Shown here: positions 18,021-26,434 of the stretch, in pieces
How positions within the stretch are numbered: the first letter of the stretch is position 1
How the letters are laid out: the number at the start of each line of letters is the position of its first letter
Notes under the pieces: model-generated
Seen by the model: the letters and a program-made list of their open reading frames with translations, nothing else
The model's database searches: none
What the model was told of the DNA's origin: nothing
Source: Myxococcota bacterium
Lineage (GTDB): Bacteria; Myxococcota_A; UBA9160; PR03
DNA: 64,000 nt
NCBI GenBank assembly: GCA_041611735.1
Contig: JBFIML010000019.1
Span: 1,863 to 65,862 of the forward strand
Direction: 5' to 3'
Program-made: the position numbers and the translations under genes

Positions 18021-19003
18021 GAGCCGTGGTCTGCAAGCAGTGGGGTCCGCCGGAGTCGCTCCAGGTCGAGGAGGTGGCGGCGCCCGCGCCCAAGGCCGGA
18101 GAGGTGGGCATCCGGGTGCACGCCGCCGGGGTGAACTTCCCCGACCTGCTGATCATCCAGAACAAGTACCAGTTCAAGCCGCCGCTCCCCTTCACGCCGG
18201 GCGGTGAGGTGGCCGGCGTCGTGACCCGGGTCGGGGAGGGCGTGTCCCACCTGAAGCCCGGAGATCGGGTGCTGGCCACCGTGCCCTGGGGTGGCTTCGC
18301 CGAGCAGGTGGCGGCGCCCGGCAAGGGAGCCATCCCGCTTCCCGAAGAGATGGACTTCGTGACCGCCGCGGCCTTCCTGATGACCTATGGGACCTCGCAC
18401 CACGCGCTCAAGGACCGCGCGCGGATGCGGCGCGGGGAGACGCTGCTCGTGCTCGGCGCTGCCGGCGGAGTGGGGCTTGCCGCCGTGGACCTCGGCAAGG
18501 CCATGGGCGCGCGCGTGGTGGCGGCGGCTTCGAGCGACGAGAAGCTCGCTCTGTGCAAGGAGTACGGGGCCGACGAACTGGTGAACTACGCGCGCGAGGA
18601 CCTCCGGGAGCGCGTGAAGGAGCTGACGGGCGGGCAGGGCGCCGACGTGGTCTACGACCCCGTGGGCGGCTCCTACTCGGAGGCCGCCTTGCGGGCCACC
18701 CGCTGGCGGGGCCGCTTCCTGGTGGTGGGCTTTGCCGCGGGCGAGATCCCGAAGATTCCCCTCAACCTGGTCCTGCTCAAGGGCTGCGAGCTGGTGGGCG
18801 TGTTCTGGGGCGCCTTCGTGGCTCGCGAGACGGAGCAGCACCTGGCGAACGTGCGCGAGCTCATGGACTGGTACCGGCGCGGAACGCTGCGACCGCACGT
18901 CTCCGCCCGCTATCCCTTCGAGCGGGTGGCGGACGCGCTGAACGACCTGGCCGCACGCCGCGTGAAGGGCAAGGTGGTGCTGGTCCCGGACCCGGCGGGA
19001 TAG
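18017..19003 (+). CDS. NADPH:quinone oxidoreductase (zeta-crystallin/MDR family)
   Basis: GTGA overlap with the upstream gene. 'GVNFPDLLIIQNKYQFKPPLPFTPGGEVAGVV...LVLGAAGGVGLAAVDLGKAMGA'. Confidence 0.9.
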   Translation: MRAVVCKQWGPPESLQVEEVAAPAPKAGEVGIRVHAAGVNFPDLLIIQNKYQFKPPLPFTPGGEVAGVVTRVGEGVSHLKPGDRVLATVPWGGFAEQVAAPGKGAIPLPEEMDFVTAAAFLMTYGTSHHALKDRARMRRGETLLVLGAAGGVGLAAVDLGKAMGARVVAAASSDEKLALCKEYGADELVNYAREDLRERVKELTGGQGADVVYDPVGGSYSEAALRATRWRGRFLVVGFAAGEIPKIPLNLVLLKGCELVGVFWGAFVARETEQHLANVRELMDWYRRGTLRPHVSARYPFERVADALNDLAARRVKGKVVLVPDPAG

Positions 19004-19140
19004 TCCGGGAGGCGGACGTGCAGCGGGTCGCGAGATCCTGGCCCTCGAGCCTCCCAGGCGCATGACCTGCCGCGTCGTTCGGGGTGGCCTGCCCATGGCC
19101 CGCCACGCCTTTGCGGGCCGCCTGGACTAGCGTCGGCGCG

Positions 19141-19671
19141 GTGCGTCGGATCCTGGCCCTCGTCCTGGCTGCCGCGGGTCTCTCCGGCTGCCTGGGGCTC
19201 GTCGGGGTGGTGCGCGGCGCCGGGGAGTTCCGCGTGGAGCGTCCGGCGCTCGACCTGCTGCGGGCCCCGCACCCGCAGACCCACGTTCCGGAGCCGCTGC
19301 AGCGGGCCGCCACGCTGCGCTCTTTCTGGGGCGAGCCCGAGGTCCGGGAGCGCCTGGCAGGAGGCCTCGAGCGCTGGACCTGGGCCACCGGTCTGCGCCT
19401 GCATGGGGTGGCACTGCTCCTCGGCGTCGTGCCGGTCCCGCTCCTGGTGCCCACCGGCCGCCATCGCGTGCACGTGCTCGTGGAACACGGCCGTCCGGTG
19501 GCCGCCTGGGGAACTGCCAACACGACGCTGGCGCGTGCCGGCTGCGCCCTGGGGCTCCCGCCCGGGCGCGGCGCCGCCGGCTGTCGCTGGGAAGGGCGCA
19601 GTGCGCCGCCCGCGGTGGTCGAGCGCCGCGGGCTGCGGCTCTGGGAGGAGCCCCCGCGACGCGCTCCGTGA
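19141..19671 (+). CDS. hypothetical lipoprotein
   Basis: The in-frame ORF is 19084..19671. GTG at 19141 gives 'VRRILALVLAAAGLSGC' (lipobox). Confidence 0.45.
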   Translation: MRRILALVLAAAGLSGCLGLVGVVRGAGEFRVERPALDLLRAPHPQTHVPEPLQRAATLRSFWGEPEVRERLAGGLERWTWATGLRLHGVALLLGVVPVPLLVPTGRHRVHVLVEHGRPVAAWGTANTTLARAGCALGLPPGRGAAGCRWEGRSAPPAVVERRGLRLWEEPPRRAP

Positions 19672-19738
19672 CCCGCGTGGCGGTCTGGATCGGGTCCCGA
19701 GGAGTCGGACCGCAAGCCGCTCGCCCGCCCACCTCCGA

Positions 19739-19757
19739 GGCGCGCCGCCGGCGCGCC
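19739..19757. terminator. GC hairpin between convergent genes
   Basis: GGCGCGCC-gcc-GGCGCGCC (the octamer is self-complementary) lies between the lipoprotein gene end (19671) and the tatC end (19771). There is no U-tract. Confidence 0.3.
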
Positions 19758-19770
19758 CGGCTTCGCTCGC

Positions 19771-20541
19771 CTACGGCTCGCTGCGCGCTGCGCTTGCGTC
19801 GCTGCGCGCCAGCGACGGCTTGTGCCGCGGGCTGAAGAGCCAGGCGACGCCGACCCCGAGCAGGTAGAGCAGGCACATGGGCACCGCCAGGAAGATCTGG
19901 CTCACCCAGTCGGGAGGCGTCAGGATCGCACCCAGCACGAAACAGAGCAGGATTGCGTACGGAAAGCCACGCATCAGCTGGGCGGTGTCCACGATCCCCG
20001 AAACCGACAGGAAGAAGACGACCACCGGCAGCTCGAAGGCGATTCCGAAGGCCAGGAACATGCGCGTCGTGAGCGCGAAGACCTCCCGCATGGTCCAGGC
20101 GGAGGCGACGAACTCGCTCTCGAAGCGACCCAGGAAGTCGAACATCACCGGGAACACCACGAAGTAGCCGAAGGCGGCACCCGCCGTGAAAAGGGCCGTC
20201 GAGATCGCTACGAAGGGGAACGCCACGCGCTTCTCGCTGGCATAGAGGCCCGGGGAGACGAAGGCCCAGAGCTGCCAGAACACCACGGGCAGCGCCAGCA
20301 CGAAGCCGCCGAGCAGCGCTCCCTTCAGGTAGGTGAAGAAGATCTCCGTGGGCGCAATCGCCTGGAGTCTGCCCCCCTCGGCGTCGAGGGCCAGCACGGC
20401 GGGTCGCAGCAGGGCCTGGAAGATGGGTTCCCGCAGGTTCCAGGCCACGGCGAAGCCGGCCGCCACCGCCAACAGCGTCCGGAAGAGGCGGCTGCGGAGC
20501 TCCGCCAGGTGCTCGGTCAGGGGCCGCTGGCTGTCATCCAC
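19771..20541 (-). CDS. tatC: twin-arginine translocase subunit TatC
   Basis: '[19 protein letters not shown]...[36 protein letters not shown]'. Confidence 0.95.
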
Positions 20542-20851
20542 GGGGCGACTCGGCCGGCCGGGGAGGGCCCTCCTCGGGGGAGGGCACCGCGTCCGGAGGC
20601 CGGTCCGCTGCCTCCTTCAGTTGGGCGGGCCGTTCGGCGGCTGCTTCCGGCTGCGGGCTGGGCCGTTCTGCTTCCCGCTCGATCGCGTCCGCCGCGTCCT
20701 GGAGCTGGTGGCGCATCTCGGTGGATGCACGGCGGAACTCGCCCAGGGCGCGCCCGAGCGAGCGCGCGAGCTCGGGGAGGCGCTTCGGGCCGACCACGAG
20801 CAGCGCCACCCCGAGAATCACCAGGAGCTCGGTCATTCCGATGCCGAACAT
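20534..20851 (-). CDS. twin-arginine translocase TatA/TatB family subunit
   Basis: '[42 protein letters not shown]'. The Glu in TM1 and the 'GP.RLP' motif are TatB-like. It overlaps tatC by 8 nt. Confidence 0.9.
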
Positions 20852-20855
20852 TGCG

Positions 20856-20874
20856 GTCCTCGAAGCTCGAGGAC
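20856..20874 (-). promoter_or_regulatory. hairpin that includes the tatA/B Shine-Dalgarno sequence
   Basis: The minus strand reads GTCCTCG-agctt-CGAGGAC-cgca-ATG. The SD 'GAGGA' forms the 3' arm of a 7-bp stem. Confidence 0.3.
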
Positions 20875-20979
20875 TCAGGGTAGCGCGGGGCAGGGAGGGG
20901 GCGGCCGTCCGCCGACGCCGCGGCGATGCCCCCCTTGCTTCGCGCGCGGGCTCCGGCGGACGGGCCGCTCGAGAAGAGA

Positions 20980-20994
20980 GCAAGGCGCATGCCA
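20980..20994 (-). promoter_or_regulatory. sigma-54 (-24/-12) type promoter upstream of tatA/B-tatC
   Basis: The minus strand reads cTGGCATGCGCCTTGCt, compared with the consensus TGGCAC-N5-TTGC. It lies 129 nt upstream of the ATG at 20851. Confidence 0.6.
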
Positions 20995-21189
20995 GCATGC
21001 CCAGGGAGTCCCCGGCGCCGTGCAAGCTCTCGATCCGTCACGGGAATCGCCGGCTGGACGCCCACACTGCCTGGGCCGGGCGCGGGGCCCCGGGCGTACC
21101 GGCGGGAACGCCCCCGCCGGCCGCTCCAGGTCAAGTTCTCGTCCTGTCTGGGGTTTCTCGGATCGTTCCGATCGGAACGCCGGCTGCGG

Positions 21190-22566
21190 TCAGACGGAAG
21201 CGGGCGGCGCGAGACCGAGCCGGTCCATCTTGAGCTTGAGAACGCGCCGCGTGACGCCCAGGCGCTGTGCCGCCAGGGTCTGGTTCCAGCCGGCTCCCTC
21301 GAGCGCATCGTGGAGGAGCGCCCGCTCGAAGCGGCTCACCGCCTGCTCGAAGGCCAGGCGGCCCGCGTTCACGGACTCGCGCAGGGACTCCAGGCGGCTG
21401 CCCTGCACCACCTCCTCCGGGAGATCCTCGACACGGATCTCCTCCGCCTCGCCCAGGGCCACGGCCCGCTCCACGGCGTTCTCGAGTTCGCGGACGTTGC
21501 CCGGCCACGAGTAGGCCTCGAGGGCGGCCATGGCCTGGGGAGCGAAACGCACCGGCCCCCGCCCGGCCGCCTCTCGCCTCCGGCCCAGGAAGTGCTCCGC
21601 CAGCAGCCGCACGTCGCCACGCCGCTCCCGCAGCGGAGCCAGCCCGATCGGCACGACCCGGATCCGGTAGTAGAGGTCGTCGCGAAAGCGGCCTTCGGCC
21701 ACCTCCCGCTCGAGGTCCCGGTTGGTGGCTGCCACCACGCGTACGTCCACGGCGATGGGCGTGTCCCCGCCGAGCCGTTGGACCCGCCGCTCCTGGAGCA
21801 CGCGCAGGAGCTTCGCCTGGACCTGCGGCGCGAGCTCTCCGATCTCGTCCAGGAAGAGCGTCCCTCCCGAGGCCGCTTCGAACCTTCCGATCCGCCGCTC
21901 CCGGGCGTCGGTGAAGGCGCCCCGCTCGTGACCGAAGAGCTCGCTCTCGATCAGGGTGTCCGGGATGGCAGCGCAGTCCACCGCCACGAAGGGGCCGTCA
22001 CGGCGCGGCCCGAGCTCGTGCAGGGCGCGCGCCACCAGCTCCTTGCCCGTCCCGCTCTCGCCGGACACGAGCACGCTGCTCGGTGACGCACACACCCGCT
22101 CCACGACCCGGAAGACGCGCTGCATCGGTTCGCTGCGGCCGAGCAGTCGCCCGAGGCGCGAGCGCCCGTCCACCTCGCTGCGCAGTCGCTCCACCTCCGC
22201 CTCGAGGGCGCGCCGCTCCAGCAAGCGCGCCACCTTGAGTCGCAGGGCTTCGATCTCGAAGGGCTTCGTCACGTAGTCGGCCGCGCCGCGCTTCATGGCC
22301 TCCACGGCCGTGGCCACGGTGCGTGTGGCGGAGAGCACGAGGACCGGCGGGGCGTCCGGGCGCTGCTCGATCTCTCCAAGCAGCTCGAGCCCGCTGCGTC
22401 CGGGCATGACGAGATCGAGGATCACGACGTCGGGCTGCGTTTCCTCCAGGATGCGCAGGGCGGGCTCCACCCCTTCGCAGGCCAGCACCTGGTGCTCGCC
22501 CTTGAAGAGCATGCGCAACGACTCCCGGACGCCGAGCTCGTCGTCCACCACCAACAGACGGGCCAT
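21190..22566 (-). CDS. sigma-54-dependent response regulator (NtrC family: REC + AAA+ + Fis-type HTH)
   Basis: 'LLVVDDE...[11 protein letters not shown]', '[17 protein letters not shown]', '[15 protein letters not shown]', '[10 protein letters not shown]', '[21 protein letters not shown]'. Confidence 0.95.
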
Positions 22567-22634
22567 GGCGCCCGGACTCTATCACGGGAGCAGGCGGGCG
22601 CCCGGCCCTTGTTCGCCAGTCTTGGACAAGGCTT

Positions 22635-24581
22635 CTACGCGACGTGGTGCGGAGCGGGAAGGTCGATCAGCACCACGATCTCGTCGCCGCGGCTCGCGTC
22701 CACGGCCATGTGTCCGCCCTGGGCGCGGACCACGGCCTCCGCCACCGGAAGCTCGAGTGCGGTCTCCTCCAAGCCGAGTCCCGGCACCGGAGCGGACTCG
22801 CCCGGAGGACGCTGGAAGCGCAGCATGACGCGCACGCTCGGCCGTCCCTCCAGGCCCCCGGCGTGGTGCTTCGAGGCGAGGTAGAGGTCGCCCCGCTCGG
22901 GCACGAACTCCACGGCCCGGTCCATGAGCGCCTCGAAGGCGAGAGCGAGCTGCTGGGGGTCGGCCCAGGCCCAAGGCTGTTCCCGGTCGAGCTCCTGGAG
23001 GACGAGCAGGCGCCGCGCCTCCACGCGGGCGCGGCGTTCCTCGAGGAGCTGCTGGAGCAGCTCGGCCACGTCGACCCGCTCCGGCTGCGGAGCCGGCAGG
23101 GCCGCAAGCCGCGTGAGGCGCTCCACGACGTCGCCGATGCGCGCGACGTCCGCGGCCGCCGCCCGGGCGAAGCGATCTCGAAACTCCGGGTCCGCGTGCC
23201 GCTCGGGCAGCAGCTCGGCCAGGGTCCGGATCGACGTGAGCGGATTCCGGATCTCGTGGGCCACCGCCCCCGCCAGGCGCCGCAGCATCGGCTCGACCGG
23301 CCGGACGCTCTCGGGCTCCACCACCCGCCCGGGCGGAGGCTCCGGCTCCGCTTCCACCGAAGCCAGCGGCTCGGACTCCTGGTCCACGGGGCCGAATGCC
23401 TCGAGCACGCTCTCGGCCTCCACCTCGGCAGTCGGCGGGCCCGGCTCGGCGACTGCCTCCGGGCGGGGGGTGCCGGGGCTGGCTCCCACCTCGAAGCGGA
23501 GCTGTCCGGCACCCAGGGGATCCCCCCGCTCCGCCGCCAAGGAGCGGACCAGGGTCTGCTCGAACTCGCGCAGGTTGCCTGGCCAGGGATGCGCGCCGAG
23601 GGCCTCGAGGGCGTCGCCGCCCAGGCGGCGCGGGCGCTCCCCGTGCGCGCGGCACCAGGCGGCCAGAACCTCCTCGGCCAGCGCGGCGATGGCTTCCCGG
23701 CGGCGGCGCAGGGGAGGCAGGCGCACCGCGAGTCCGCCCAGCGCCCGTTCGAGCTCCGGATCGAGCCAGTGTCCGGGCAGGGGCGCCTCGGGATCGCAGC
23801 ACGTCCCGATCCAGCGCAGCGGCGCCCCGGCCAGGGCCGCGGTGGGGGGCGCGATCTCGATCCACTCCCGGACCTCGCGTTGCACCTGGGGCACGAGGCG
23901 GTCGACCTCCTCGAGACACACGCTGACCCGGCCCGAGCGCCAGCCTCGCCCGGCCGCGGCCAGGCGCTCGAGAAGGACGTCGCTGCCGGTCTCGGGGCCG
24001 CAGGGAAGCGCCACGAAGCTCCCCGAGCCGGCGGTCCGGGCACCGAACCAGTGGACGTAGCGGGCCAGGAGCCCGCGTCCGGTGCCGGGCTCGCCGGCGA
24101 TCAGCACCGGCACGTCGGCGAGCCGCGGATCCACCAGGCCGAGCAGCTCGGGCATGGCCAGATCCAGGAACCAACGGGCGAAACGCGCCGCGACGGCCTC
24201 GCGCTCCCGGCGCGCGGCCAGGGAGTCGACGCGTCGGCGTCCGAGCGCGCTCGCGATCCGCTCGCGCAGGCCGTGGAGCGCCGGCGGGTAGGCGAGCGCC
24301 TCCGCCCCCAGGCCGTCGAAGAGGCGCCTTGCGTCCGGCAGGTCCGCGGGCTCCGCCACCAGGATCCACTCGGGGTCCGACGTGCGGGCGGTCAGGCGCC
24401 GCGCCAGCTCGAGCTCCGCCTCGAAGTCGCCGGCCACCCCGAGCACCACCAGCCGCGGGGGCGCGGCCTCCTCGAGGCGAGGGTCCGCCGGGCCGGCCAC
24501 GAGGCTCTCCGCGCCTCCCGCCAGCCGGGCCAGGGCGGCGCGGACGTGGGCATCGCGATGGACGATCCAGAGCTCGGCCAT
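22635..24581 (-). CDS. fusion protein: receiver-like domain + EBP-type AAA+ domain lacking GAFTGA + HisKA/HATPase-like module
   Basis: 'VLIAGEPGTGRG', 'VCLEEVDRL', 'LPPLRRRREAI', 'HPWPGNLREFE', then 'AVAHEIRNPLTSI' and '...GGHMAVDASRGDEIVVLIDLP'. The start at 24581 (MAELWIV) is preferred, with 24626 as an alternative. Confidence 0.8.
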   Translation of the reverse strand: MAELWIVHRDAHVRAALARLAGGAESLVAGPADPRLEEAAPPRLVVLGVAGDFEAELELARRLTARTSDPEWILVAEPADLPDARRLFDGLGAEALAYPPALHGLRERIASALGRRRVDSLAARREREAVAARFARWFLDLAMPELLGLVDPRLADVPVLIAGEPGTGRGLLARYVHWFGARTAGSGSFVALPCGPETGSDVLLERLAAAGRGWRSGRVSVCLEEVDRLVPQVQREVREWIEIAPPTAALAGAPLRWIGTCCDPEAPLPGHWLDPELERALGGLAVRLPPLRRRREAIAALAEEVLAAWCRAHGERPRRLGGDALEALGAHPWPGNLREFEQTLVRSLAAERGDPLGAGQLRFEVGASPGTPRPEAVAEPGPPTAEVEAESVLEAFGPVDQESEPLASVEAEPEPPPGRVVEPESVRPVEPMLRRLAGAVAHEIRNPLTSIRTLAELLPERHADPEFRDRFARAAAADVARIGDVVERLTRLAALPAPQPERVDVAELLQQLLEERRARVEARRLLVLQELDREQPWAWADPQQLALAFEALMDRAVEFVPERGDLYLASKHHAGGLEGRPSVRVMLRFQRPPGESAPVPGLGLEETALELPVAEAVVRAQGGHMAVDASRGDEIVVLIDLPAPHHVA

Positions 24582-24662
24582 GGCTCCCGCGGGCTCGAAA
24601 GAAGTGGACCCCGGTGCACGCCGCATGTCGTACGCTGCGTGCACTCCCCCACCGGCCATTGG

Positions 24663-24677
24663 GCAATCCTCATGCCA
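24663..24677 (-). promoter_or_regulatory. sigma-54 (-24/-12) type promoter upstream of the fusion-protein/activator operon
   Basis: The minus strand reads tTGGCATGAGGATTGCc. It shares the TGGCATG-N4-TTGC core with the site at 20980-20994. Confidence 0.55.
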
Positions 24678-24728
24678 AGCGCAGCGCCCCGGCAGGCGAG
24701 GCGCAGAAGCGCGGCGAAACGTCCCTCC

Positions 24729-24758
24729 CGGTGGGCGCGTCGTCGAGCGAGCCCACCG
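24729..24758. promoter_or_regulatory. inverted repeat, candidate upstream activator site
   Basis: CGGTGGGC-N14-GCCCACCG lies about 52-80 bp upstream of the -24 element at 24677. Confidence 0.25.
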
Positions 24759-24901
24759 CGCCGCCCGGGCCTCCGCGGCGCGTCCGCGCCCCCCGCGGCG
24801 CCTCATTCTAGGAAAAATTCTGCCGCCCCCCGGGACCGTTGCCCCTGCCCGGGGCGTCTGCGACATTGACTCCCATCCATCCTCCAACGGAGCCACGCGG
24901 T

Positions 24902-26434
24902 GTGCCCGTGATCGACCGCGGACCCGAAGTCCGCCTGCGCAACTGGTTCGATCGCCCCTACGACGACGCCATCGCCGCCGCCCGAACCTGCTACTCGCCT
25001 CGTGTGGTCGAGGCGGACGAGGTCACGGACCGGCAGCGGCGCAGCATCGGGCCGCTCACCTTCGACGGCGGCCACCACACCGTCTATCAGCACGCCACCT
25101 TCGAGTTCGCGCTGTCCGGGCTTTCACGCCAGGTCGTGTGGGGCTTCCTGCACGCCTTTCCGTTCTACAACACGGAGCAGCAGAGCCAGCGCTACGTGCG
25201 CCTGGACGAGGCGCGCGCCCACGTGCCGCCCGTCCTGGGCGGGCGGGCCCGGGAGCTCTACGAGCGCGCGCTCGAAAGCGCCTGGCGCGCCTATGCGGAG
25301 CTGACCGCACGGCTCCAGCCGGTCACCCACGCCATCCTGGCCGACCTGTGGCGCCTGGCCGAGCGACAGTCGAAGGCCTTCGGTCGGGGCGTGGCGCGCG
25401 AGGCCGAGAAGAAGGCCATCGAGACCGCGCGCTACGTGATCCCGATCGCCTGTCACACGGCCATGGTCTACACGGTGTCGGGAATCGTGCTGCACCGCAT
25501 GCGGCGCATGGCTGGAGTCTGCGACACCCCGGACGAGGCGCGCGACGTGGTGGACCGCATGGTCGCGGAGGTGGAGCGCGTGGACCCGGCCTTCTTCCAG
25601 GAGGTGGGTGAGACGCCGCTCGACCCGTCGGAGGTGGTGGAGCGGGAGGCGCCCTGCGGCATGGGCGACCCGGCCGCCCTCGAAGCCTTCGACAAGTCCC
25701 TGGACGGCCGCCTCTCGCGGCTGGTGGACTACGGGGCACGAGCGCCCGAGGTGGTGGCGGACGCGGTGCGTCACGTGCTCGGCCGTTCGGACCTGGACGA
25801 CGAGAGCGCCCTGGCCCTCGCTCTCGACCCGGCCCGCAACCGCTACCGGCTCGAGACCCTGAACGTCTCCACGCACGCGCCGGTCATGCGCGCGCTGGCC
25901 CACGCCCATTACACGTTTCGCAAGCGGCTCTCCCACACGGCGGACTCCCAGGATCAGCGGCATCGCATGGTTCCCGGTAGCCGTCCCCTGCTCTCGCGCA
26001 CGGTGCCGGCCACGCCGGACGTGCTGGAGCCCGACCTGATCCGCAACCAGCCGCGTGCCCACGCCCTCTTCCGCGAGGCGGTGGAGGAGGCCTGGGACGC
26101 CCGCGCGCGCCTGCTCGCCCTCGGCGTCGCGCCCGAGATCGCGCTCTACGTGCTTCCCAACGCGGTGGCCGTGCGTTTCGAGGAGTCGGGCTCGCTGCTC
26201 CACCTGCTCCACAAGTGGACCATGCGCACCTGCTTGAACGCCCAGCGCGAGATCTGGGAGGCCTCCATGGACGAGGTCGCTCAGGTGCGGGCGGTCCATC
26301 CCCAGCTCATGCGTCACGTGGGTCCGCCCTGCGTGGTCCGCAACGGCCTCGCCCGCCCGCGCTGCACCGAGGGGAGCCACTTCTGCGGCATACCGGTCTG
26401 GCGCAGCTTCCCGCAGGTCGAGCGGAGGATCTGA
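24902..26434 (+). CDS. duplicated (pseudo-dimeric) ThyX-like flavin-dependent thymidylate synthase family protein
   Basis: The N-terminal half has 'FYNTEQQSQRYV' (the S-x-RY part of the ThyX motif). The C-terminal half has 'SQDQRHRMVPGS' (the RHR part). About 510 aa versus about 220-250 for a canonical ThyX. GTG starts at 24902 or 24908. Confidence 0.75.
   Translation: MPVIDRGPEVRLRNWFDRPYDDAIAAARTCYSPRVVEADEVTDRQRRSIGPLTFDGGHHTVYQHATFEFALSGLSRQVVWGFLHAFPFYNTEQQSQRYVRLDEARAHVPPVLGGRARELYERALESAWRAYAELTARLQPVTHAILADLWRLAERQSKAFGRGVAREAEKKAIETARYVIPIACHTAMVYTVSGIVLHRMRRMAGVCDTPDEARDVVDRMVAEVERVDPAFFQEVGETPLDPSEVVEREAPCGMGDPAALEAFDKSLDGRLSRLVDYGARAPEVVADAVRHVLGRSDLDDESALALALDPARNRYRLETLNVSTHAPVMRALAHAHYTFRKRLSHTADSQDQRHRMVPGSRPLLSRTVPATPDVLEPDLIRNQPRAHALFREAVEEAWDARARLLALGVAPEIALYVLPNAVAVRFEESGSLLHLLHKWTMRTCLNAQREIWEASMDEVAQVRAVHPQLMRHVGPPCVVRNGLARPRCTEGSHFCGIPVWRSFPQVERRI

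Follow-up and report, generated by a model that had tools for sequence, protein, structure and literature searches.

Here we describe a sigma-54 promoter in front of genes for twin-arginine translocation (Tat) in a 64-kb stretch of the Myxococcota contig JBFIML010000019.1, which is called the window throughout and is meant at its full length. The element, a -24/-12 motif on the minus strand at 20980-20994 (site 2), is almost certainly a real promoter as judged from its conservation across a clade; it is of the NtrC type and unusual in its present cargo, the gene pair tatA-tatC, as well as in the history by which its original cargo was lost. We favour, with a probability of roughly 0.55, an arrangement of tandem promoters in which a basal, activator-independent proximal promoter would be joined by a signal-dependent distal sigma-54 promoter that raises the expression of tatA-tatC. 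Tat is usually taken as constitutive and little is known of its regulation. If our explanation is true, a consensus enhancer-dependent promoter feeds the core genes of the translocase directly, atop a basal promoter, and in the literature searched we found no consensus -24/-12 promoter with enhancer sites directly before tatA-tatC.

Along the minus strand of the window the order is site 1 (a second sigma-54 motif), a kinase-like gene, the gene of an NtrC-type activator, site 2, a tatA/B gene (tatA in the following) and tatC:

20980..20994, minus strand: sigma-54 (-24/-12) promoter element TGGCATGCGCCTTGC, site 2, assigned by exact match and conservation
24663..24677, minus strand: sigma-54 promoter element TGGCATGAGGATTGC, site 1, 82 nucleotides (nt) ahead of the kinase-like gene, with thyX running in the divergent direction
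21190..22566, minus strand: NtrC-type enhancer-binding response regulator (the activator), 458 amino acids (aa), with Pfam REC, Sigma54_activat, AAA_lid_14 and HTH_8
20534..20851, minus strand: tatA/B-type gene, 105 aa, Pfam TatA_B_E 6.1e-18
19771..20541, minus strand: tatC with a GTG start, 256 aa, Pfam TatC 1.9e-66 and TIGR00945 214 bits

At site 2 the minus strand reads CTGGCATGCGCCTTGCT, with TGGCATGCGCCTTGC occupying 20994..20980 exactly inside the stretch from 21020 to 20960, ...CCCTGGGCATGCTGGCATGCGCCTTGCTCTCTTCTCG.... The GG and GC doublets stand at the canonical spacing of TGGCAC-N5-TTGCW, a T follows TTGC, and TGGCATGCGCCTTGCT matches 9/10 core bases as well as the W position. The element is intergenic and on the coding strand. 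The stop codon TGA of the activator gene (21192-21190) is 196 nt away on one side, and the ATG of tatA (20851-20849) is 129 nt away on the other. A preliminary description of this DNA had already placed a sigma-54-type motif here, together with a matching core on the same strand at 24663-24677; all of its coordinates are correct, and its identification of the activator, tatA/B and tatC is supported by Pfam. When C at 20980 is taken as -12, the standard spacing predicts a transcription start near 20968. The -24 element lies within a short tandem duplication, TGGGCATGC-TGGCATGC (20987-21003, minus strand), of which only the second copy has the correct spacing to TTGC.

Searching both strands of the window, which has a GC content of 72%, for TGGCAY-N5-TTGC gave only sites 1 and 2, with 0.11 matches expected, and none of 100 dinucleotide shuffles contained two or more. 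Both sites are intergenic, each is directed at its downstream gene, and no further strong sigma-54 motif was found in the window. With one mismatch allowed, the shuffles contained as many motifs as would explain the number in the window, and what carries the case is that the match is exact, well placed and conserved. The one-mismatch count is what one would expect if site 2 had arisen by chance in intergenic DNA rich in GC and had no promoter function, but such an explanation has to face two exact and correctly oriented intergenic matches as well as the conservation described below, and we consider it hardly credible.

The comparison covered about 165 related loci, all from uncultured Myxococcota. 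Scanning species-representative genomes with TatC yielded the first 80 loci, with TatC identities of 52-79% and labelled mostly as metagenome-assembled genomes (MAGs) of Myxococcota, Myxococcales or Deltaproteobacteria with some other labels among them, and a scan of metagenomes yielded 80 further loci, none above 72% TatC identity. Relatives with 80-100% TatC identity were not found, as the metagenome scan stayed at or below 72% and the protein search returned only the window and the species of L001, the sister species of the window. The loci L168-L170 are nearly identical to L001 and were counted as the same species, and the Logan contigs L081-L083 have a TatC identical to that of the window and presumably belong to its species. 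The 129-nt arrangement is found in no more than two distinct species. The relatives have widely kept the gene order thyX, kinase-like gene, activator, ..., tatA, tatC. In the first 80 loci (778 kb) the exact pattern TGGCA[CT]-N5-TTGC occurs 51 times, always on the gene strand and at two places only, one ahead of the kinase-like gene and one past the activator gene, which implies that a working sigma-54 system is present in the clade. The T at core position 6 of site 2 recurs in 7 orthologous site-2 sequences of this set. With at least 9 of the 10 core bases required, the motif is found between activator and tatA in all 41 loci that possess an orthologous activator and tatA, and since orthologous conservation of this extent speaks against a chance match, that possibility is effectively refuted. 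The preliminary description had made conservation in orthologous tat upstream regions a condition of its claim; the motif is present in 41 of 41 activator/tatA loci, but in nearly all of them it is not located directly upstream of tatA.

The 260 nt upstream of site 2 are enriched for the words GTTCCG/CGGAAC in 33 of 37 loci. These words form two 14-bp palindromes of the type GTTCC-N4-GGAAC. Counted from the -24 T they are located at about -184 and -115, 69 bp apart. Scored at no more than two mismatches and in the intervals -195..-165 and -130..-95, the distal palindrome is present in 32/37 and the proximal one in 31/37 of the orthologous site-2 regions with the same 69-bp phasing. A sequence resembling a binding site of integration host factor (IHF), WATCAA-N4-TTR with at most one mismatch, was found in sharply defined positions, at about -41 in 11 and at about -150 in 9 of the 37 relatives. 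The corresponding elements of the window are:

21165..21178: distal enhancer palindrome, upstream activator site 1 (UAS1), GTTCCGATCGGAAC, perfect, 184 nt upstream of the -24 T
21096..21109: proximal enhancer palindrome, UAS2, GTTCCCGCCGGTAC, one mismatch, 115 nt upstream of the -24 T
21023..21035, minus strand: weak, degenerate IHF-like element GATCGAGAGCTTG, read at the homologous position between UAS2 and the promoter

The IHF-like copy of the window exceeds one mismatch and so was missed by the WATCAA-N4-TTR scan. Elsewhere in the window the palindrome has one-mismatch matches only, at 19227, 23036, 36325 and 46125, the last of them apparently inside the coding sequence of an Obg-type GTPase gene. 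UAS1 is a candidate binding site of the adjacent activator, which we infer to act at site 2 because the activator gene and site 2 adjoin and co-occur.

NtrC-type sigma-54 promoters with tandem upstream activator sites and an IHF site are known from glnAp2, nifH and atoDAEB. Site 2 resembles them in the -24/-12 spacing, in the two dyad sites more than 100 bp upstream, in the activator with REC, AAA+ and Fis-type helix-turn-helix domains that is encoded next door and, in many relatives, in the IHF-like site in between. It differs from them in the uncharacterised half-site GTTCC-N4-GGAAC and signal, the activator loop GAFTDA, the tatA-tatC cargo and the partner 'kinase', which is derived from an enhancer-binding protein and has a degenerate AAA+ domain. 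The half-site GTTCC-N4-GGAAC was not described as an enhancer in the literature searched. The activator itself (Sigma54_activat 2.2e-71 in Pfam) carries GAFTDA instead of GAFTGA as its sigma-54 contact loop, and the same is true for 29 of 36 orthologues, with GAFTGA in 5 of the 36; GAFTDA is given among the tolerated loop variants that are compatible with activation in a study of the Desulfovibrio sigma-54 regulome (PMC4641369). Desulfovibrio vulgaris is similar also in the pairing of activators with a promoter immediately downstream of their own gene, whereas neither tatA nor a twin-arginine term occurs in the main text of that study and the enhancer motif differs as far as compared (PMC4641369).

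The preliminary description had joined both promoters into one regulon. Orthologous sites upstream of the kinase-like gene are present in 24 loci, but GTTCC-N4-GGAAC is found near site 1 in only 3/18 regions, against 32/37 and 31/37 for the two palindromes at site 2, and the site-1 regions conserve a different element of the TGGGAAA..TTTCCCA type. As sites 1 and 2 share the core only and not the enhancers, a single regulon of both sigma-54 promoters is not supported by the comparison. In the window the site-1 element reads GGCAGAATTTTTCCTAGAATG (about 24800-24830, minus strand), which is of the type TGGGAAA-N4-TTTCCCA(ATTTG), and elements of the TGGGAAA-N4-TTTCCCA type also occur in the site-1 regions of L013, L022, L031, L042 and L043.

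What site 2 drives in the relatives is different from what it faces in the window. Typically it is located 200-330 nt past the activator stop, while its distance to tatA is about 1.2-2.4 kb, most often about 1.7 kb, and in some relatives about 0.5-0.6 kb; in either case it precedes a REC-HD-GYP and/or a PilZ gene. The first cargo gene encodes a response regulator of about 410 aa with REC and HD_5 domains and the motif HHExxDGxGYP, which makes it an HD-GYP phosphodiesterase for cyclic di-GMP (c-di-GMP), and the second encodes a PilZ-domain protein of 120-160 aa. In most of the clade the PilZ gene is located immediately upstream of tatA, usually after the REC-HD-GYP gene (examples are L005, L007, L013, L019, L046, L165 and L166; Pfam PilZ was above its cut-off in 3 of 4 tested). 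Besides the full form (activator, REC-HD-GYP, PilZ, tatA-tatC) the architectures include forms without HD-GYP (L019, L028, L046, L165, L166), forms without the activator gene (L002, L022, L038; among the activator-less loci only L065 has the site-2 motif), tatA directly after the kinase-like gene (L030, L039, L051, L164) and, in L011, thyX abutting tatA with the whole module missing. In every sigma-54 architecture seen, tatA-tatC is downstream of and co-oriented with the sigma-54-driven genes. Ten loci (L010, L012, L014, L020, L027, L029, L044, L055, L075, L076) contain an extra 1.4-2.7 kb between activator and site 2, and here the promoter (with its palindromes where scanned) is still located about 1.6-1.75 kb upstream of tatA and adjoins the HD-GYP gene.

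In the first 80 loci the motif is found within 400 nt of tatA only in L001 (127 nt) and L003 (381 nt), and L085 from the metagenome set has it 366 nt upstream of tatA. L003 and L085 both possess the promoter and the two palindromes (those of L085 being degenerate and read from the alignment) with no intervening gene. In the 64-kb window neither orthologues nor remnants of HD-GYP or PilZ genes were found, only REC-domain paralogues, and tatA-tatC is the only gene pair downstream of site 2. Gene order therefore indicates that the juxtaposition of site 2 and tatA in the window and its sister species L001 is derived, by loss of the original cargo of the promoter. A block CGGCC(G/C)GTCCG was considered as proof of a single deletion common to the window, L001, L003 and L085 and was rejected, as one-mismatch matches to it are common in DNA of such GC content; it is a weak hint only.

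Between the window and L001 the intergenic region from activator to tatA is 54% identical overall, while 9/10 core bases of the promoter are identical (binomial P ~0.02), the one difference being T for C at core position 6. Ranked by conservation among 17-nt blocks of this region, the promoter core comes near the top, closely after a hairpin arm at the predicted start. The activator is 83% identical and has kept all of its domains. That the chain of sensor, activator, enhancer and promoter was kept intact over this divergence argues for a useful output.

We aligned the 100 nt before tatA from 69 loci and found a conserved -10-like motif directly upstream of the gene, GCTAnnnT and often TGCTAnnnT, which in the window is represented by:

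20877..20884, minus strand: -10-like box GCTACCCT, TAnnnT (TACCCT) at 20882-20877 after GC, 25 nt upstream of the tatA ATG

CTAnnnT is present at -50..-1 in 54/68 loci, compared to 4.0 in shuffles and 0-2 in each of three 50-nt bins farther from the gene. GCTAnnnT was found in 56/73 loci in the 90 nt that precede tatA, and it is specific for this gene, as it precedes tatC in 1/76, the activator gene in 3/34, the kinase-like gene in 0/24, thyX in 0/9 and the HD-GYP gene in 0/39 cases. The independent metagenome set gave 43/59, and L011 and L004 possess the box without a sigma-54 module. In the box-anchored alignment G is found at -14 in 48/54 and T at -15 in 15/54 sequences. We regard GCTAnnnT as a candidate -10 element of a housekeeping-sigma promoter for tatA-tatC.

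In 38/54 loci the hexamer ends 6-10 nt before ATG/GTG and there is no Shine-Dalgarno sequence, the remainder being 13-33 nt away, and tatA appears to be leaderless in most relatives. Shell et al. reportedly described in 2015 leaderless and short-leader genes of mycobacteria with a TAnnnT -10 box near the start codon. The box of the relatives at 6-10 nt and without Shine-Dalgarno sequence (the same 38/54) is similar to these, while the window differs from them in having a Shine-Dalgarno sequence and a box that is 25 nt away from the ATG.

With site 2 as the sole promoter of tatA-tatC, Tat would be made only upon two-component activation, possibly beside a second, constitutive Tat encoded elsewhere. 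Such a view could point to site 2 as the only strong promoter consensus upstream of tatA with no canonical sigma-70 promoter predicted, to the weakness of the window's box (TACCCT, with neither TG nor -35), to precedents for a regulated Tat (PMC2725144, PMC9604234) and to the related complete chromosome OZ245015.1, where two tatC loci (L069 and L078) show that second copies exist in the group. One of these copies is linked to the sigma-54 cluster (62% identity) and the other stands alone (52%) with no tatA nearby; L023 and L032 likewise both come from one MAG, JBDLIK01. Yet the block CGCGCTACCCT, which contains the window's box, is identical in L001 and is part of the tatA-specific motif in about 75% of the relatives, where the motif is found also at loci without any sigma-54 element, no second tatA or tatC was found in the 64-kb window, and in relatives the promoter serves other genes. 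We therefore consider a sole sigma-54 promoter quite improbable. The proposal of the preliminary description that this promoter makes protein export conditional is weakened in the same way: the separate, conserved GCTAnnnT box argues for a basal expression independent of sigma-54 and makes a strictly sigma-54-conditional Tat unlikely.

From the predicted start at about 20968 to tatA the leader measures 117 nt and contains no gene. Two hairpins were found in it:

20901..20968, minus strand: long GC-rich hairpin by RNA folding, comprising the first 68 nt of the leader from the predicted start
20857..20873, minus strand: perfect 7-bp hairpin TCCTCGA-gct-TCGAGGA, present in the minimum-energy fold, with the tatA Shine-Dalgarno sequence GAGGA in its 3' arm

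The whole leader folds with -70.1 kcal/mol (z = -2.17). L001 has an equivalent leader hairpin, and nothing in the intergenic region is better conserved between the two species than its arms. The alignment shows one compensatory exchange across the arms, C-G to G-C, and the covariation consists of this single exchange. The hairpin is followed by the C-rich tract CCCCCTCCCTGCCCC and by no U-tract, which is not what is expected of a Rho-independent terminator, and a generic scan of 18800-25000 found no minus-strand terminator with U-tract between site 2 and tatA. The hairpin could stabilise the sigma-54 transcript at its 5' end or act as a terminator/attenuator. The shorter hairpin is probably complete only in a long transcript derived from the sigma-54 promoter, since a transcript starting about 7 nt past the -10-like box would miss the greater part of the 5' arm. 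The GGGG of the Shine-Dalgarno sequence of L001 is paired by a different C-run upstream.

If the long hairpin did act as terminator, site 2 would be an orphaned or insulated promoter: its transcripts would stop at 20901-20968, they would leave a short hairpin RNA with a C-rich tail, about 70-90 nt in all, or no useful product, and tat would be transcribed independently of sigma-54 from the proximal promoter only. This view is attractive for a very stable hairpin whose first base coincides with the predicted transcription start and whose conservation includes a compensatory exchange, and it agrees with the own conserved box of tatA in most loci and with strong hairpins that relatives often have between the upstream gene and the -10 box of tatA, for example L003, L013, L024, L028 and L031. 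Desulfovibrio offers a parallel, as non-coding RNAs are the targets of several of its sigma-54 activators, located just downstream of the activator's own gene (PMC4641369, for D. vulgaris). Also the 366-381-nt non-coding spacers of L003 and L085 could represent an RNA gene. However, the U-tract is missing, no Rfam family matches, and a hairpin at the 5' end is equally well explained as a stabiliser of the mRNA. A terminator would leave the constant co-orientation of tatA-tatC downstream of sigma-54-driven genes unexplained, and in L165 the gap between PilZ and tatA amounts to 55 nt and has no -10 box, which implies read-through there. Taken together, we regard insulation as doubtful, though as the strongest competitor of the tandem promoters.

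The spacers of L003 (265-640) and L085 (2265-2610) reach without a gene from the promoter to tatA over 366-381 nt and contain perfectly conserved blocks in an otherwise diverged alignment, GGGGCAGAGTCGCGACCGGGCCG with 23/23 nt and CAAAACGGGGGAG with 13/13 nt, that are found in no other locus; they may encode a sigma-54-driven non-coding RNA. An Rfam search of 19500-25000 of the window and of L001, L003 and L085 gave no credible family.

For the tandem promoters that we favour, the mechanism might be as follows. The neighbouring NtrC-type activator, once phosphorylated, would bind the palindromes at -184 and -115, loop to the closed complex of the sigma-54 holoenzyme and open it by ATP hydrolysis. 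The ancestral promoter would have driven the genes for the REC-HD-GYP c-di-GMP phosphodiesterase and the small PilZ protein and then tatA-tatC. After deletion of the HD-GYP and PilZ genes in the lineage of the window and L001, it would now fire from about 20968 through the 117-nt leader, reading through its hairpin, into tatA-tatC, which would have kept its own sigma-70-type promoter with the -10 box GCTACCCT for basal expression. Several points weigh against this explanation. The immediate cargo in most relatives consists of signalling genes, so that mere chance in the deletion could have linked the promoter to tat in the window. The stable leader hairpin might terminate sigma-54 transcripts before tatA in an organism of such high GC content. 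Many relatives, too, have terminator-like hairpins in the interval from the upstream gene to the tatA box (z < -1.5 in 28%, stems of at least 8 bp in 26/54), and are consistent with a partial insulation from upstream transcription. A long transcript would pair the Shine-Dalgarno sequence of tatA, which could limit its translation. As to the proximal promoter, no conserved -35 element is visible in the box-anchored alignment, the window has CGC and not TGC and hence lacks the TG of an extended -10, and the generic scan of 18800-25000 found 0 sigma-70 promoters, though at 72% GC neither this result nor its negative for terminators means much.

A Tat component under sigma-54 control has been reported from another (former) deltaproteobacterium, Geobacter sulfurreducens, where the RpoN-dependent fdnG operon contains the TatA/E-family gene GSU0781 (PMC2725144). 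There the gene is an accessory paralogue of tatA that closes an operon for formate dehydrogenase, whereas here the core of the translocase, tatA-tatC, stands alone. In Salmonella the induction of tatABC by bile salts depends on PspF, and CpxR binds the promoter (PMC9604234). Similar to what is predicted here, Tat is modulated via the pathway of a sigma-54 enhancer-binding protein atop a basal expression, but no sigma-54 promoter is defined at the Salmonella tatA and the effect might be indirect, in contrast to the -24/-12 element with enhancers 129 nt from tatA in the window. That Tat is normally constitutive, as the preliminary description had put it, agrees with E. coli, for which a constitutive tat expression is mentioned in PMC9604234 with reference to Jack et al. 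2001, but a regulated Tat has precedents in the two examples above (PMC2725144, PMC9604234).

The cluster of sigma-54 signalling, c-di-GMP turnover (HD-GYP), PilZ receptor and tatA-tatC that is found in many uncultured Myxococcota has not been described in the literature searched, and this applies also to a natural example of promoter re-targeting by deletion of the original cargo. One could speculate further that in this widespread clade of uncultured, mostly marine and sediment Myxococcota Tat is a regulated output of a sigma-54/c-di-GMP cassette consisting of the kinase derived from an enhancer-binding protein, the NtrC-type activator, the HD-GYP phosphodiesterase and the PilZ receptor, in which PilZ would couple c-di-GMP to the activity or assembly of Tat and the promoter would have been captured in the lineage of the window for direct control of tatA-tatC once the c-di-GMP genes had gone. 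We think that this is rather unlikely, and the literature searched contains no link of c-di-GMP to Tat. Our prediction is based on sequences from uncultured organisms, and its practical consequences are modest.

The tatA and tatC genes of the window overlap by 8 nt, the GTG start of tatC being located inside the end of tatA. According to NCBIfam, the tatA/B product scores 57.3 for the TatA/E subfamily (cut-off 53.9) and 56.3 for TatB (cut-off 56.5); TIGR01411 and TIGR00945 are above their cut-offs and identify the pair as twin-arginine translocase genes for a TatA/B-family protein and TatC. Beyond tatC a convergent open reading frame (ORF) of 195 aa is located on the plus strand at 19084-19671, which makes tatC the last gene of the unit. 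A minus-strand ORF at 18910-19770 was considered as an extension of the tat operon and rejected, as its translation resembles reverse-frame noise and the convergent 195-aa ORF is called there. Past the tatC stop and before the convergent gene the sequence shows a palindrome that is terminator-like and without a U-tract:

19739..19757: palindrome GGCGCGCC-GGC-GGCGCGCC

The remaining gene of the sigma-54 module is the partner of the activator:

22635..24581, minus strand: kinase-like partner, 648 aa; Pfam domains sigma-54 AAA+ (degenerate), AAA lid and HisKA; H-box HEIRNP

Its residues 1-349 show 28% identity to the activator, and the protein is evidently derived from an enhancer-binding protein. 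The Walker A motif is degenerate (GEPGTGRG, no lysine), the GAFTGA loop is absent, and Pfam found no HATPase_c. The gene is conserved across the clade with 28-57% identity. Divergent from it, thyX (24839-26434, plus strand) encodes a protein of 531 aa with two Thy1 stretches, which is about twice the usual length of ThyX and shows 61-80% identity in the relatives.

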